Source of the DNA: Escherichia coli
GTDB taxonomy: Bacteria > Pseudomonadota > Gammaproteobacteria > Enterobacterales > Enterobacteriaceae
Length of the DNA stretch: 64,000 bases
NCBI RefSeq assembly: GCF_050920415.1
Contig: NZ_CP169309.1
Strand: one strand, 5' to 3'
The notes below the pieces were generated by a model, which was not told where the DNA came from, ran no database searches, and was given only the letters and a program-made list of their open reading frames with translations. Shown here one piece after another: positions 1 through 44,031 of the stretch. The translations under genes were made by a program, and so were the position numbers. Numbering within the stretch: the stretch's first letter is position 1; the number at the start of each line of letters is the position of its first letter.

Positions 1-432
1 GCACGACCTGATGCCAGCGAACAAGAGTTACAAACAGCACTGGATAACGCGTGGGTCAGTGAGTTTCTACCGCTCCTGCCACAAGGCGTTGATACGCCTG
101 TTGGCGACCAGGCTGCCCGCCTTTCCGTAGGCCAGGCACAACGTGTGGCGGTGGCGCGTGCATTACTGAATCCCTGTTCGCTATTACTGTTGGATGAACC
201 CGCAGCAAGCCTTGATGCTCACAGTGAACAGCGCGTAATGGAGGCGCTGAATGCCGCCTCTCTGCGCCAGACAACGTTAATGGTCACCCACCAGTTAGAA
301 GATCTTGCTGACTGGGATGTCATTTGGGTAATGCAGGATGGTCAGATTATCGAGCAAGGACGTTACGCGGAATTAAGCGTGGCTGGTGGTCCTTTCGCCA
401 CATTGCTGGCCCATCGTCAGGAGGAGATTTAA
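1..432 (+). CDS. cydD: Cysteine/glutathione ABC exporter CydD, C-terminal part (5' end lies outside the window)
   Basis: Open frame from base 1 to the stop at 430-432; translation has an ABC signature-like LSVGQAQR and Walker B LLLLDEP; directly precedes cydC as in the cydDC operon. Confidence 0.9.
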   Translation, partial: ARPDASEQELQTALDNAWVSEFLPLLPQGVDTPVGDQAARLSVGQAQRVAVARALLNPCSLLLLDEPAASLDAHSEQRVMEALNAASLRQTTLMVTHQLEDLADWDVIWVMQDGQIIEQGRYAELSVAGGPFATLLAHRQEEI

Positions 433-14600: not shown

Positions 14601-14766
14601 GGTGCGGTTTGTAATTAAAGCGCAAGAACATCTTTAAATGAAAATGAATACCCTACCGATCCTTATGCATAACATTTCCTTTTAATTGCAACTTTACTCG
14701 TCCTTCCGCTTTCAGTAGTGTGTCATCGCGCATTTCGACTTATTTCTTTGCAAGGACTGGTTTTTC

Positions 14767-15666
14767 ATGTTTTCTGGGCTGTTAATCATTCTGGTTCCCC
14801 TGATTGTGGGTTACCTCATTCCGCTTCGCCAAAAAGCTGCATTAAAGGTTATTAATCAGCTATTAAGCTGGATGGTTTACCTTATTCTCTTTTTTATGGG
14901 TATCAGTCTGGCGTTTCTCGATAACCTCGCCAGTAACCTGTTGGCGATTCTGCATTATTCCGCCGTCAGTATTACCGTTATTTTACTGTGTAATATTGCC
15001 GCCCTGATGTGGCTGGAGCGAGGCCTACCGTGGCGCAACCACCATCAGCAAGAAAAACTCCCGTCACGTATTGCGATGGCGCTGGAGTCCCTCAAGCTCT
15101 GCGGTGTGGTGGTGATTGGCTTTGCTATTGGCCTTAGCGGATTAGGTTTCTTACAACACGCTACGGAAGCCAGCGAATACACGTTAATTCTGCTACTTTT
15201 CCTCGTCGGTATTCAGTTGCGTAATAATGGCATGACCTTAAAGCAGATTGTCCTTAATCGCCGGGGAATGATTGTCGCTGTGGTGGTGGTGGCCAGTTCT
15301 TTAATTGGTGGTTTAATTAACGCCTTTATTCTTGATCTTCCCATCAATACCGCGCTGGCAATGGCTTCCGGTTTCGGCTGGTATTCTCTTTCCGGTATTT
15401 TATTGACCGAATCTTTTGGTCCGGTAATCGGGAGCGCGGCGTTTTTTAATGATTTGGCCCGTGAGCTGATTGCTATTATGTTGATCCCTGGGCTGATTCG
15501 CCGTAGCCGCTCTACTGCACTGGGCTTATGCGGTGCGACGTCGATGGATTTCACACTGCCCGTTCTTCAACGTACTGGCGGACTGGATATGGTCCCGGCG
15601 GCGATTGTTCACGGTTTTATTCTTAGCCTGTTAGTGCCGATCCTCATCGCCTTTTTCTCTGCGTAA
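14767..15666 (+). CDS. lysO: L-lysine exporter LysO (YbjE)
   Basis: 299-aa polytopic membrane protein; position and length match ybjE/lysO. Confidence 0.88.
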   Translation: MFSGLLIILVPLIVGYLIPLRQKAALKVINQLLSWMVYLILFFMGISLAFLDNLASNLLAILHYSAVSITVILLCNIAALMWLERGLPWRNHHQQEKLPSRIAMALESLKLCGVVVIGFAIGLSGLGFLQHATEASEYTLILLLFLVGIQLRNNGMTLKQIVLNRRGMIVAVVVVASSLIGGLINAFILDLPINTALAMASGFGWYSLSGILLTESFGPVIGSAAFFNDLARELIAIMLIPGLIRRSRSTALGLCGATSMDFTLPVLQRTGGLDMVPAAIVHGFILSLLVPILIAFFSA

Positions 15667-15772
15667 TACCTCTCTGGCGGTAGATCCCTGCCGCCAAAAT
15701 TGCGCTAAATCAATCTCCCTTAAAGTTGCATGAAAAATCCCTTTTATCCCCGCGTTAAGCGTCTTAACCTTA

Positions 15773-15795
15773 AACATGTATATTAAATATAACTT
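15773..15795 (+). promoter_or_regulatory. Candidate NsrR operator in the hcp promoter
   Basis: aacatgtatattaaatataactt, an imperfect inverted repeat resembling the NsrR consensus, about 15 bp upstream of the hcp start. Confidence 0.4.
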
Positions 15796-15809
15796 TAAAA
15801 GGTGTGATC

Positions 15810-17462
15810 ATGTTTTGTGTGCAATGTGAACAAACTATCCGTACTCCGGCAGGAAACGGCTGCTCATACGCGCAGGGGATGTGTGGTAAAACGGCGGAAA
15901 CCTCTGACCTTCAGGATTTACTCATTGCGGCGCTGCAAGGGCTTTCGGCCTGGGCGGTAAAAGCACGTGAATACGGCATCATCAACCACGATGTAGACAG
16001 CTTCGCGCCGCGCGCATTTTTCTCAACCCTGACTAACGTTAACTTCGATTCTCCGCGTATTGTCGGCTACGCTCGTGAAGCAATTGCCCTGCGCGAGGCG
16101 CTGAAAGCACAGTGCCTGGCTGTAGATGCCAACGCCCACGTCGATAACCCGATGGCTGACCTGCAACTGGTGAGTGACGATCTCGGCGAGCTGCAACGTC
16201 AGGCGGCGGAATTTACTCCCAATAAAGATAAAGCGGCGATTGGCGAAAACATTCTCGGCCTGCGTCTGCTCTGCCTGTATGGCCTGAAAGGTGCTGCCGC
16301 CTATATGGAACACGCGCACGTTCTCGGTCAATATGACAACGATATTTACGCCCAGTACCATAAAATCATGGCATGGCTGGGTACCTGGCCTGCCGATATG
16401 AACGCACTTCTCGAGTGCTCCATGGAAATCGGCCAGATGAACTTCAAAGTGATGAGCATTCTGGACGCAGGCGAAACCGGTAAATACGGTCACCCGACGC
16501 CAACTCAGGTCAACGTCAAAGCGACGGCGGGTAAATGCATTCTGATTTCCGGTCACGATCTCAAAGATCTCTACAACTTGCTGGAACAGACCGAAGGCAC
16601 GGGCGTTAATGTCTACACTCACGGCGAAATGCTGCCTGCCCACGGCTACCCGGAGCTGCGTAAATTCAAGCATCTGGTCGGTAACTACGGCAGCGGCTGG
16701 CAGAATCAGCAAGTAGAGTTCGCTCGCTTCCCTGGACCTATCGTGATGACCTCGAACTGCATCATCGACCCAACCGTAGGGGCTTATGACGATCGTATCT
16801 GGACCCGCAGCATCGTTGGCTGGCCGGGTGTGCGTCATCTGGATGGTGATGATTTCTCAGCAGTTATTGCCCAGGCACAACAAATGGCGGGCTTCCCGTA
16901 CAGCGAAATTCCGCACCTGATCACCGTGGGCTTTGGTCGTCAGACGCTGCTTGGCGCGGCGGATACGCTGATTGATCTGGTGAGCCGTGAAAAACTGCGT
17001 CATATCTTCCTGCTCGGTGGCTGTGACGGCGCACGCGGCGAGCGCCACTACTTCACCGATTTCGCCACCAGCGTGCCAGATGACTGCCTGATCCTGACCC
17101 TCGCCTGCGGTAAATATCGCTTTAACAAACTTGAGTTTGGCGATATCGAAGGTCTGCCGCGTCTGGTAGATGCTGGTCAATGTAACGATGCTTACTCAGC
17201 GATTATTCTGGCTGTCACTTTGGCAGAAAAACTGGGCTGCGGTGTCAACGATCTGCCGTTGTCGCTGGTACTCTCCTGGTTCGAACAAAAAGCGATTGTT
17301 ATTCTGCTGACGCTGCTTTCTTTGGGCGTGAAAAATATCGTTACCGGCCCGACTGCACCTGGCTTCCTGACGCCAGACCTGCTGGCGGTACTGAACGAGA
17401 AATTCGGCCTGCGTTCTATCACCACTGTTGAAGAAGACATGAAGCAACTGTTGAGCGCGTAA
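15810..17462 (+). CDS. hcp: Hybrid-cluster protein Hcp
   Basis: 550-aa [31 protein letters not shown]... with the N-terminal Cys cluster. Confidence 0.96.
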
Positions 17463-17473
17463 GGAGTTTGTCG

Positions 17474-18442
17474 ATGACGATGCCAACCAATCAATGCCCG
17501 TGGCGGATGCAGGTTCATCACATTACGCAAGAAACGCCGGATGTGTGGACGATTTCCCTGATTTGCCACGATTACTACCCGTATCGCGCCGGGCAATATG
17601 CGCTGGTCAGCGTGCGTAACTCAGCGGAAACGCTGCGTGCTTACACCATTTCCTCCACGCCAGGCGTGAGTGAATACATCACTCTGACCGTGCGACGGAT
17701 TGATGACGGTGTCGGTTCCCAGTGGCTGACCCGCGATGTAAAACGCGGTGACTACCTCTGGCTTTCGGACGCGATGGGGGAATTTACCTGCGACGATAAA
17801 GCAGAAGATAAATTCCTGTTGCTGGCAGCCGGCTGCGGCGTCACACCGATTATGTCGATGCGTCGCTGGCTGGCGAAAAATCGCCCGCAGGCGGATGTGC
17901 AGGTGATCTACAACGTGCGTACGCCGCAGGATGTTATTTTCGCCGATGAATGGCGTGACTATCCGGTGTCACTGGTGGCGGAAAATAACGTTACCGAGGG
18001 TTTCGTTGCCGGGCGTCTGACACGTGAACTGCTGACAAGCGTTCCTGATTTAGCCTCTCGTACTGTGATGACCTGTGGCCCGGCTCCGTATATGGATTGG
18101 GTAGAACAGGAAGTGAAAGCGCTCGGCGTGACGCGTTTCTTTAAAGAGAAGTTCTTTACGCCAGTGGCGGAAGCAGCAACCAGCGGTCTGAAATTCACCA
18201 AACTGCAACCGGCGCAAGAATTTTACGCACCTGTTGGCACCACACTGCTGGAGGCTTTGGAAAGCAACAAAGTTCCGGTTGTCGCCGCCTGCCGTGCAGG
18301 CGTTTGCGGCTGCTGTAAGACGAAAGTAGTTTCCGGTGAATATACGGTGAGTAGCACAATGACGCTGACCGACGCCGAAATCGCAGAAGGTTATGTACTG
18401 GCCTGCTCCTGCCATCCGCAGGGGGATTTGGTTCTCGCATAA
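17474..18442 (+). CDS. hcr: NADH oxidoreductase Hcr (reductase partner of Hcp)
   Basis: 322-aa ORF with C-terminal 2Fe-2S ferredoxin motif CRAGVCGCC; SD aaggag at 17461-17466. Confidence 0.95.
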   Translation: MTMPTNQCPWRMQVHHITQETPDVWTISLICHDYYPYRAGQYALVSVRNSAETLRAYTISSTPGVSEYITLTVRRIDDGVGSQWLTRDVKRGDYLWLSDAMGEFTCDDKAEDKFLLLAAGCGVTPIMSMRRWLAKNRPQADVQVIYNVRTPQDVIFADEWRDYPVSLVAENNVTEGFVAGRLTRELLTSVPDLASRTVMTCGPAPYMDWVEQEVKALGVTRFFKEKFFTPVAEAATSGLKFTKLQPAQEFYAPVGTTLLEALESNKVPVVAACRAGVCGCCKTKVVSGEYTVSSTMTLTDAEIAEGYVLACSCHPQGDLVLA

Positions 18443-42302: not shown

Positions 42303-43988
42303 GTGAATATAAACGTCGCCGAATTGTTAAATGGGAATTACATTCTGTTATTATTTGTGGTCCTCGCGCTTGGGCTATGTCTCGGAAAGTTACGACTTGG
42401 TTCGATCCAACTGGGTAATTCCATTGGCGTTTTAGTCGTATCGCTGTTATTAGGCCAACAACATTTCAGCATTAACACCGATGCGCTTAATCTTGGCTTT
42501 ATGCTGTTTATTTTCTGCGTCGGGGTCGAAGCCGGACCGAACTTTTTTTCCATTTTTTTTCGCGATGGGAAAAATTACCTAATGTTAGCACTGGTGATGG
42601 TTGGCAGTGCGCTGGTGATCGCCTTAGGGTTAGGTAAGCTGTTTGGCTGGGATATTGGCCTGACGGCCGGTATGTTAGCAGGCTCTATGACGTCAACACC
42701 GGTTTTGGTCGGTGCTGGCGATACACTGCGTCATTCCGGCATGGAAAGCAGGCAGCTCTCACTGGCACTGGATAATCTGAGCCTCGGGTATGCCTTAACC
42801 TATTTAATCGGTCTGGTGAGTTTGATTGTTGGTGCGCGTTACTTGCCGAAATTGCAGCATCAGGACTTACAGACCAGCGCCCAGCAAATCGCCCGCGAAC
42901 GTGGCCTGGACACAGATGCCAACCGTAAGGTTTATTTGCCGGTGATCCGCGCCTACCGCGTCGGCCCGGAGCTGGTGGCCTGGACCGATGGCAAAAATCT
43001 GCGTGAACTGGGTATTTATCGGCAAACCGGCTGTTACATTGAACGTATTCGGCGTAACGGGATTCTGGCAAATCCAGACGGTGATGCCGTACTACAAATG
43101 GGCGATGAAATAGCGTTGGTAGGCTATCCCGACGCCCACGCCCGACTCGATCCCAGTTTCCGTAATGGCAAAGAAGTTTTCGATCGTGACCTTCTCGACA
43201 TGCGTATCGTCACTGAAGAAGTGGTCGTTAAAAACCATAACGCTGTAGGCAAACGTCTCGCACAACTGAAGTTGACCGATCACGGTTGCTTCCTTAACCG
43301 CGTCATTCGTAGCCAGATTGAGATGCCGATTGATGACAACGTCGTGCTTAACAAAGGTGACGTTTTACAAGTCAGCGGCGATGCCCGTCGCGTAAAAACC
43401 ATCGCCGATCGCATCGGCTTTATCTCGATTCACAGCCAGGTCACTGACTTGCTGGCATTCTGCGCCTTCTTTGTTATTGGGCTGATGATCGGGATGATCA
43501 CCTTCCAGTTCAGCACATTCAGTTTCGGCATGGGGAACGCTGCCGGGTTGTTATTCGCCGGAATTATGCTGGGCTTTATGCGCGCTAACCACCCGACCTT
43601 CGGTTACATTCCGCAGGGTGCATTAAGCATGGTGAAGGAGTTCGGCTTGATGGTGTTTATGGCAGGCGTTGGTCTGAGCGCTGGTAGCGGTATTAATAAC
43701 GGCCTGGGCGCGATTGGCGGTCAGATGTTGATTGCCGGATTGATTGTCAGTCTGGTGCCAGTGGTTATCTGCTTCTTGTTCGGTGCTTATGTATTGCGAA
43801 TGAACCGCGCACTGTTGTTCGGCGCAATGATGGGCGCACGCACCTGCGCGCCGGCAATGGAGATCATCAGTGATACAGCTCGCAGTAATATCCCGGCGCT
43901 GGGCTATGCGGGCACTTACGCAATCGCCAACGTCCTGCTGACGCTGGCAGGGACACTCATCGTCATGGTATGGCCAGGATTAGGATAA
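42303..43988 (+). CDS. ybjL: Putative transporter YbjL (AAE family, with TrkA-C domains)
   Basis: 561-aa ORF with GTG start ([20 protein letters not shown]...); duplicated membrane domains flanking a soluble domain. Confidence 0.9.
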
Positions 43989-44031
43989 AACTGAAGTTGC
44001 CCTGAAAATGAAATTTTTTTGCACAACCGCA

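Follow-up and report, generated by a model that had tools for sequence, protein, structure and literature searches.

What does the short AT-rich block just in front of hcp do, and for which regulator? The window analysed here is a stretch of 64,000 nucleotides of Escherichia coli DNA (contig NZ_CP169309.1) with the E. coli gene order lysO (14767..15666), hcp, hcr, poxB. The 550-aa hybrid cluster protein, Hcp, is encoded on the plus strand at 15810..17462 (815.5 bits on NCBIfam model NF003658, whose cutoff is 367, and the RefSeq annotation of an identical locus); at 1,653 nt its gene is as long as that of K-12. Hcr, the 322-aa NADH oxidoreductase partner of Hcp, follows in the same operon and on the same strand at 17474..18442 (638.2 bits on NF007964, cutoff 383, and annotation). 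The block itself is the 23-mer AACATGTATATTAAATATAACTT at 15773..15795, letter for letter the string quoted in the original prediction, which had been made from the sequence alone. It is nearly certain that this 23-mer is the operator through which NsrR, the NO-sensing iron-sulfur repressor of the Rrf2 family, controls hcp-hcr.

The operator is an 11-1-11 imperfect inverted repeat, AACATGTATAT-T-AAATATAACTT, with its left arm at 15773-15783, its central T at 15784 and its right arm at 15785-15795; like the other dyad elements described below it is assigned no strand. It is 87% A+T, and 14 nt separate its 3' end from the ATG of hcp at 15810: an AT-rich imperfect inverted repeat directly 5' of hcp, as had been described. 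How much does the repeat say by itself? Complementarity between the arms extends to 7 of 11 positions, a symmetry equalled by 8.4% of shuffles of the same letters and by 0.93% of all 23-mers of the window. This is not significant, and the symmetry is weak as sole evidence: it is by the motif match rather than the palindrome that the 23-mer is identified as an NsrR site.

The motif match was scored with symmetric position weight matrices (PWMs) built from the NsrR sites published in PMC5320621, hcp excluded. The main matrix, of 25 sites, gives the operator 25.5 bits, more than it gives to 23 of its 25 training sites; a matrix of 15 ChIP-positive sites gives 24.0 bits, and one made of five classic sites (ytfE, hmp, ygbA, yeaR, tehA) gives 20.7 bits. 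Under all three the operator ranks first among the 63,978 positions of the window. The exact probability of its score is 7.8e-10 at the composition of the window and 6.6e-8 against a background of 75% A+T; shuffling never equals the score, whether the window is shuffled by dinucleotides (200 times) or the 144-nt intergenic region is shuffled (5,000 times). A PWM scan had been proposed as a check on the NsrR assignment, and far from yielding a low motif score it places the 23-mer at the top of the window. (A technical note: the table from which the training sites come was itself chosen with a matrix derived from ChIP peaks that include hcp, and leaving hcp out lessens this circularity while keeping some of it; the operator nevertheless comes first with the matrix of five classic sites.)

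Two further PWM matches elsewhere in the window were rejected as operators. One, at 43994..44016 (16.8 bits), lies in the gap after an open reading frame ending at 43988; the other, at 14672..14694 (15.2 bits), lies 73 nt upstream of the start of lysO. Both are at or near the chance level for 64 kb with AT-rich background (0.06-0.6 and 0.16-1.5 such matches expected, respectively).

The in vivo side of the case (NsrR occupancy, induction by NO, the start point of transcription and dependence on FNR) is taken from the literature, and can be brought to bear on this window by sequence identity. No base differs between the segment 15660-15830, which contains all of the lysO-hcp intergenic region, and K-12 MG1655; the comparison with the K-12 hcp promoter that the original prediction had proposed consequently finds the operator without displacement. 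For E. coli CFT073 the hcp NsrR site, also 11-1-11, is given as AAGTTATATTTAATATACATGTT (Table 4, Mehta 2015, PMC5320621), a sequence that, reverse-complemented, gives the 23-mer of the window letter for letter. The CFT073 site lies under an NsrR ChIP-seq peak whose summit is 22 bp from the start codon, and its PatSer lnP of -23.87 is the second best in that genome, after ytfE (PMC5320621). ChIP-chip in K-12 (Partridge 2009) likewise found hcp, as cited in PMC5320621. Exposure to NO raises hcp expression 43.7-fold and hcr expression 37.2-fold (PMC5320621), and pNF383, a fusion of the hcp promoter to lacZ, is used in the field as a reporter of NsrR and NO (PMC9052748). NsrR occupancy of the site in the window, taken from this literature on strains with identical sequence, would be expected to be the same. 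The repressor gene, nsrR, lies outside the window and is found in 5,425 of 5,426 complete E. coli genomes; on the NsrR equivalog model, whose cutoff is 182, the K-12 protein reaches 292.8 bits, and it also matches the Rrf2, RirA and IscR family models.

Set against the hcp-hcr NsrR site of K-12 and CFT073 (PMC1274295, PMC5320621), the operator is the same element: its sequence, flanking genes, distance to the ATG, distance to the FNR box and mapped start are identical, and nothing is detectably different. The NsrR control that had been proposed for hcp-hcr is accordingly supported by motif score and published site together, and the remark that the site is recognizable rather than novel was also right, for it is already documented at base resolution. 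It is confirmed, in short, that 15773..15795 is the well-documented NsrR operator of E. coli hcp-hcr, which is an ordinary finding.

How does the operator sit in its promoter? The start of hcp transcription has been mapped experimentally to the T in AAACATG-T-ATATT (Figure S1, Rodionov 2005, PMC1274295), which is 15779 on the plus strand and leaves a 31-nt leader. The hcp-hcr FNR site has been placed at -72.5 (Myers 2013, PMC3688515), and an FNR site is also predicted in PMC1274295; its counterpart is the box TTGCG-CTAA-ATCAA at 15700..15713. The centre of this box, 15706.5, falls at -72.5 from 15779, so that mapped start and FNR position are mutually consistent. From the two together it follows that the operator spans -6..+17 and is centred at +6, covering the start point and the initial 17 nt of the leader just downstream of TAACCT (15765..15770, -14..-9, plus strand), the candidate -10 hexamer by its position relative to the mapped start. 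The claim that the site overlaps the hcp promoter therefore holds for the polymerase footprint and the start point, and fails for the -10 and -35 hexamers. The core promoter is weak, as expected of a promoter that depends on an activator: a scan of 15500-15900 for σ70 consensus elements and terminators returned nothing, no strong hexamer pair included, a result that is uninformative for a promoter of this kind. Further upstream, at 15667..15682 (centre -104.5), stands a probable NarL/NarP site of the 7-2-7 type, TACCTCT-CT-GGCGGTA, which we take to be the NarL/NarP site of Chismon 2010; downstream, a likely Shine-Dalgarno sequence, AAGGTG (15799..15804, plus strand), precedes the ATG by 5 nt. 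NarL/NarP are required for induction of hcp (PMC1274295). There is no σ70 ChIP peak at hcp-hcr (PMC3688515), and dependence of hcp-hcr on σE is cited in the same source; a σE-like -35/-10 pair was not spotted by eye in the hcp promoter between 15700 and 15810.

To the identity, significance and position of the operator can be added its conservation. Searching with a plain pattern for the first 26 nt of hcp, which are conserved, yielded 120 loci; usable upstream sequence was available for 105 Enterobacterales loci (the window counted; 985 kb scanned) and for 13 Aeromonas loci. Across the 105, the hcp-proximal NsrR site scores between 19.4 and 30.1 bits (median 25.4). In 92 loci no other PWM match outranks it, and in all 105 it is among the top two. 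Where another match is better, it is either an upstream element of the hcp promoter (Yersinia, Trabulsiella) or a distant site (Providencia, Proteus, Morganella, Moellerella). The spacing is retained along with the sequence: the proximal site lies 12-21 nt from the hcp ATG in most Enterobacterales loci (40-41 nt in Proteus), and its centre lies 75.5-79.5 bp from that of the FNR box in most genera. The 13 Aeromonas hcp loci serve as a negative control; the PWM scan finds no NsrR-type site in them (all matches at or below 13.8 bits). In a gapless footprint of 59 distinct enterobacterial promoters with E. coli-like spacing, information per column is highest for the FNR box (1.84 bits), followed by the NsrR 23-mer (1.77) and the -10 region (1.69), with 0.6-1.1 bits in the spacers; the probable NarL/NarP site is weakly conserved, at 0.76 bits per column. 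The seven-species alignment of 2005 is in this way widened to about 100 species of Enterobacterales, with the same result.

Within E. coli, the 301-bp stretch around the operator was found in 5,424 of 5,426 complete genomes. The 23-mer is intact in 5,178 of these 5,424 (95.5%), the adjacent 30-nt spacer in 3,894. One variant was seen inside the operator: T7C, at arm position 7 in strain CH10508, a change toward the consensus that scores 26.5 bits.

An AT-rich block at a transcription start may of course be read in other ways. It could be a core-promoter or initial-transcribed element recognized by RNA polymerase rather than by a repressor: the operator contains two 5/6 matches to TATAAT (TATATT at 15779-15784 and TATAAC at 15788-15793), and the conserved block runs unbroken from the candidate -10 hexamer into the 23-mer. 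The consensus scan, however, finds no -35/-10 pair that uses either hexamer, and both lie downstream of the mapped start at 15779. Conservation, moreover, tracks the pattern of the NsrR arms (AA..TG.AT / AT..A.CTT), substitutions between genera retain high NsrR scores, and a published NsrR ChIP peak lies on the same sequence (PMC5320621), all of which makes a polymerase-read element very improbable. It is just as improbable that the 23-mer is, or doubles as, the operator of some other regulator of AT-rich DNA, such as ArcA, Fur, IscR or OxyR. Matching used consensus strings presumed for Fur, OxyR, IscR, FNR and ArcA. The best that can be said for this reading is the ArcA direct-repeat consensus, matched at 12 of 16 positions at 15777-15792, a match that 5.8% of composition-matched shuffles equal; the consensus is untrained and the match borderline. 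By contrast, the NsrR consensus is matched at 16 of 22 positions, which none of 2,000 shuffles equals. Fur (11/19), OxyR (7/10), IscR type 1 (16/25) and FNR (6/10) were tried and rejected, doing no better than shuffles (26-96% equal them).

What of the RNA? Since 17 of the 23 operator bases are transcribed (+1..+17), the inverted repeat might act as a hairpin in the 31-nt hcp leader, affecting translation or stability. This is the least probable reading of all, next to negligible: a spacer of 1 nt cannot form a hairpin loop, the operator is wholly unpaired in the predicted fold of 15779-15840, and that fold, with a minimum free energy of -6.3 kcal/mol, is unexceptional (z = 0.35; 118 of 200 shuffles give a fold as stable or more so).

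How might NsrR, then, act from this operator? In the likeliest mechanism a dimer of the holo form, [4Fe-4S]-NsrR, would bind both 11-bp arms, centred at +6 and within the footprint of RNA polymerase. So placed, it would block formation of the open complex or promoter escape; it is only the position of the site that points to steric occlusion. The core promoter thus blocked would be a weak one, dependent otherwise on FNR at -72.5, with an input from NarL/NarP further upstream. NO would nitrosylate the iron-sulfur cluster of NsrR, the repressor would leave the DNA, and FNR-dependent transcription would follow. Dependence on FNR combined with release of NsrR by NO means that Hcp-Hcr should be made only when cells are both anaerobic and under nitrosative stress. 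The operator would thereby explain why hcp-hcr, an anaerobic NO-detoxifying system, is expressed only without oxygen (through FNR) and with NO (through release of NsrR). The hcp::lacZ reporters that are widely used for cytoplasmic NO likewise depend on this operator. The value of the present analysis lies in correct annotation only; the known picture is unchanged.

The hcp site shares with the NsrR operators of ytfE and hmp the 11-1-11 geometry and the informative positions (AA..TG.AT.. / ..AT.CA..TT), and each of its arms matches the NsrR consensus AAGATGCATTT at 8 of 11 positions. The arm cores are TGTAT/ATATA, in contrast to TGCAT/ATGCA in sites of the ytfE/hmp type, and with its 87% A+T and 7/11 symmetry the hcp site is more AT-rich and less symmetric than the near-perfect palindrome of ytfE. 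IscR type 1 operators invite comparison, in that both regulators are dimeric winged-helix proteins of the Rrf2 family acting on inverted repeats of roughly 23-25 bp; applied to the hcp region, the IscR type 1 consensus scores 16/25, which 26% of shuffles equal, the level of chance. The logic, nitrogen-oxide-responsive control of hcp, recurs with HcpR in anaerobes, NorR2 in Vibrionales and DNR (PMC1274295), whose proteins and motifs differ from those of NsrR.

Is there a second NsrR operator in the hcp promoter? The second-best PWM match in the window, at 17.7 bits, is a 23-mer at 15723..15745, AAGTTGCATGA-A-AAATCCCTTTT (AAGTTGCATGAAAAATCCCTTTT). It falls between the -35 region and the FNR box; its centre, at -45, is 50 bp 5' of that of the primary operator. 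Matches as good as this one are expected 0.0006 times per intergenic region of that size, and E. coli alleles of the B2 type carry AAGTTGCATTA, which scores 19.5 bits. The left arm of the element has been listed as a possible NsrR motif (Table 2, Mehta 2015, PMC5320621); the distance printed there, '11', looks like a corruption of 77, the value that the geometry of the window gives. Of the 105 Enterobacterales loci, 84 have the element at a distance of 49-52 bp from the primary operator, and its position is in that sense conserved. Its NsrR score is patchy: the median over the 105 loci is 5.9 bits, 33 loci reach 12.3 bits or more, and 22 reach 17 bits or more. In some promoters of Yersinia and Trabulsiella no PWM match ranks above it (21-24.7 bits). 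The best-conserved columns of the element, an A-tract and CCTTTT, overlap the informative NsrR positions only partly. Because position is conserved across genera but NsrR score is not, the element is not claimed as an operator; judged by its sequence, a second functional NsrR operator at 15723..15745 in E. coli is a possibility, on balance a doubtful one. If it were real, NsrR would also occupy -56..-34, besides blocking the start point, and would thus take up the stretch on which polymerase, through its α-CTD and σ region 4, relies when FNR activates from -72.5.

The survey of loci yielded several minor observations. Aeromonas hcp promoters carry a perfect palindrome of the FNR/CRP family, TTGAT-N4-ATCAA (TTGATCTGCATCAA), about 69 nt upstream of hcp (listed for loci L010, L016, L021, L023, L027, L033, L059, L061, L096, L099 and L121), which suggests that hcp may there be under a different regulator, of the FNR, DNR or HcpR type. 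Four genera, Providencia, Proteus, Morganella and Moellerella, have an NsrR site close to the consensus (28-30.5 bits) at 2.6-6.3 kb upstream of hcp. The one in Providencia vermicola (L063, 6524..6546) stands where a tehB homolog begins (TehB model, 408.9 bits), and tehB-like genes are members of the NsrR regulon (Rodionov 2005, PMC1274295). Similar sites occur in L019, L020, L068, L073, L075, L116, L118 and L119; the downstream gene was identified in L063 only.

Two E. coli alleles also deserve mention. That of strain CH10508 (L123, about 220..262, corresponding to 15779 and 15796..15800 of the window) has, besides T7C, lost one nucleotide from the A-run that stands in the leader immediately before the Shine-Dalgarno sequence. 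In E. coli O169:H41 strain 2014EL-1345-2 the hcp promoter is interrupted by IS421, an IS4-like element (L128, 1150..2510, at a point corresponding to about 15740..15750 of the window), with an apparent 11-bp target duplication, CCTTTTATCCC. The insertion leaves the NsrR operator intact and moves the FNR box about 1.4 kb from the core promoter; going by this arrangement, the allele should have lost activation by FNR.
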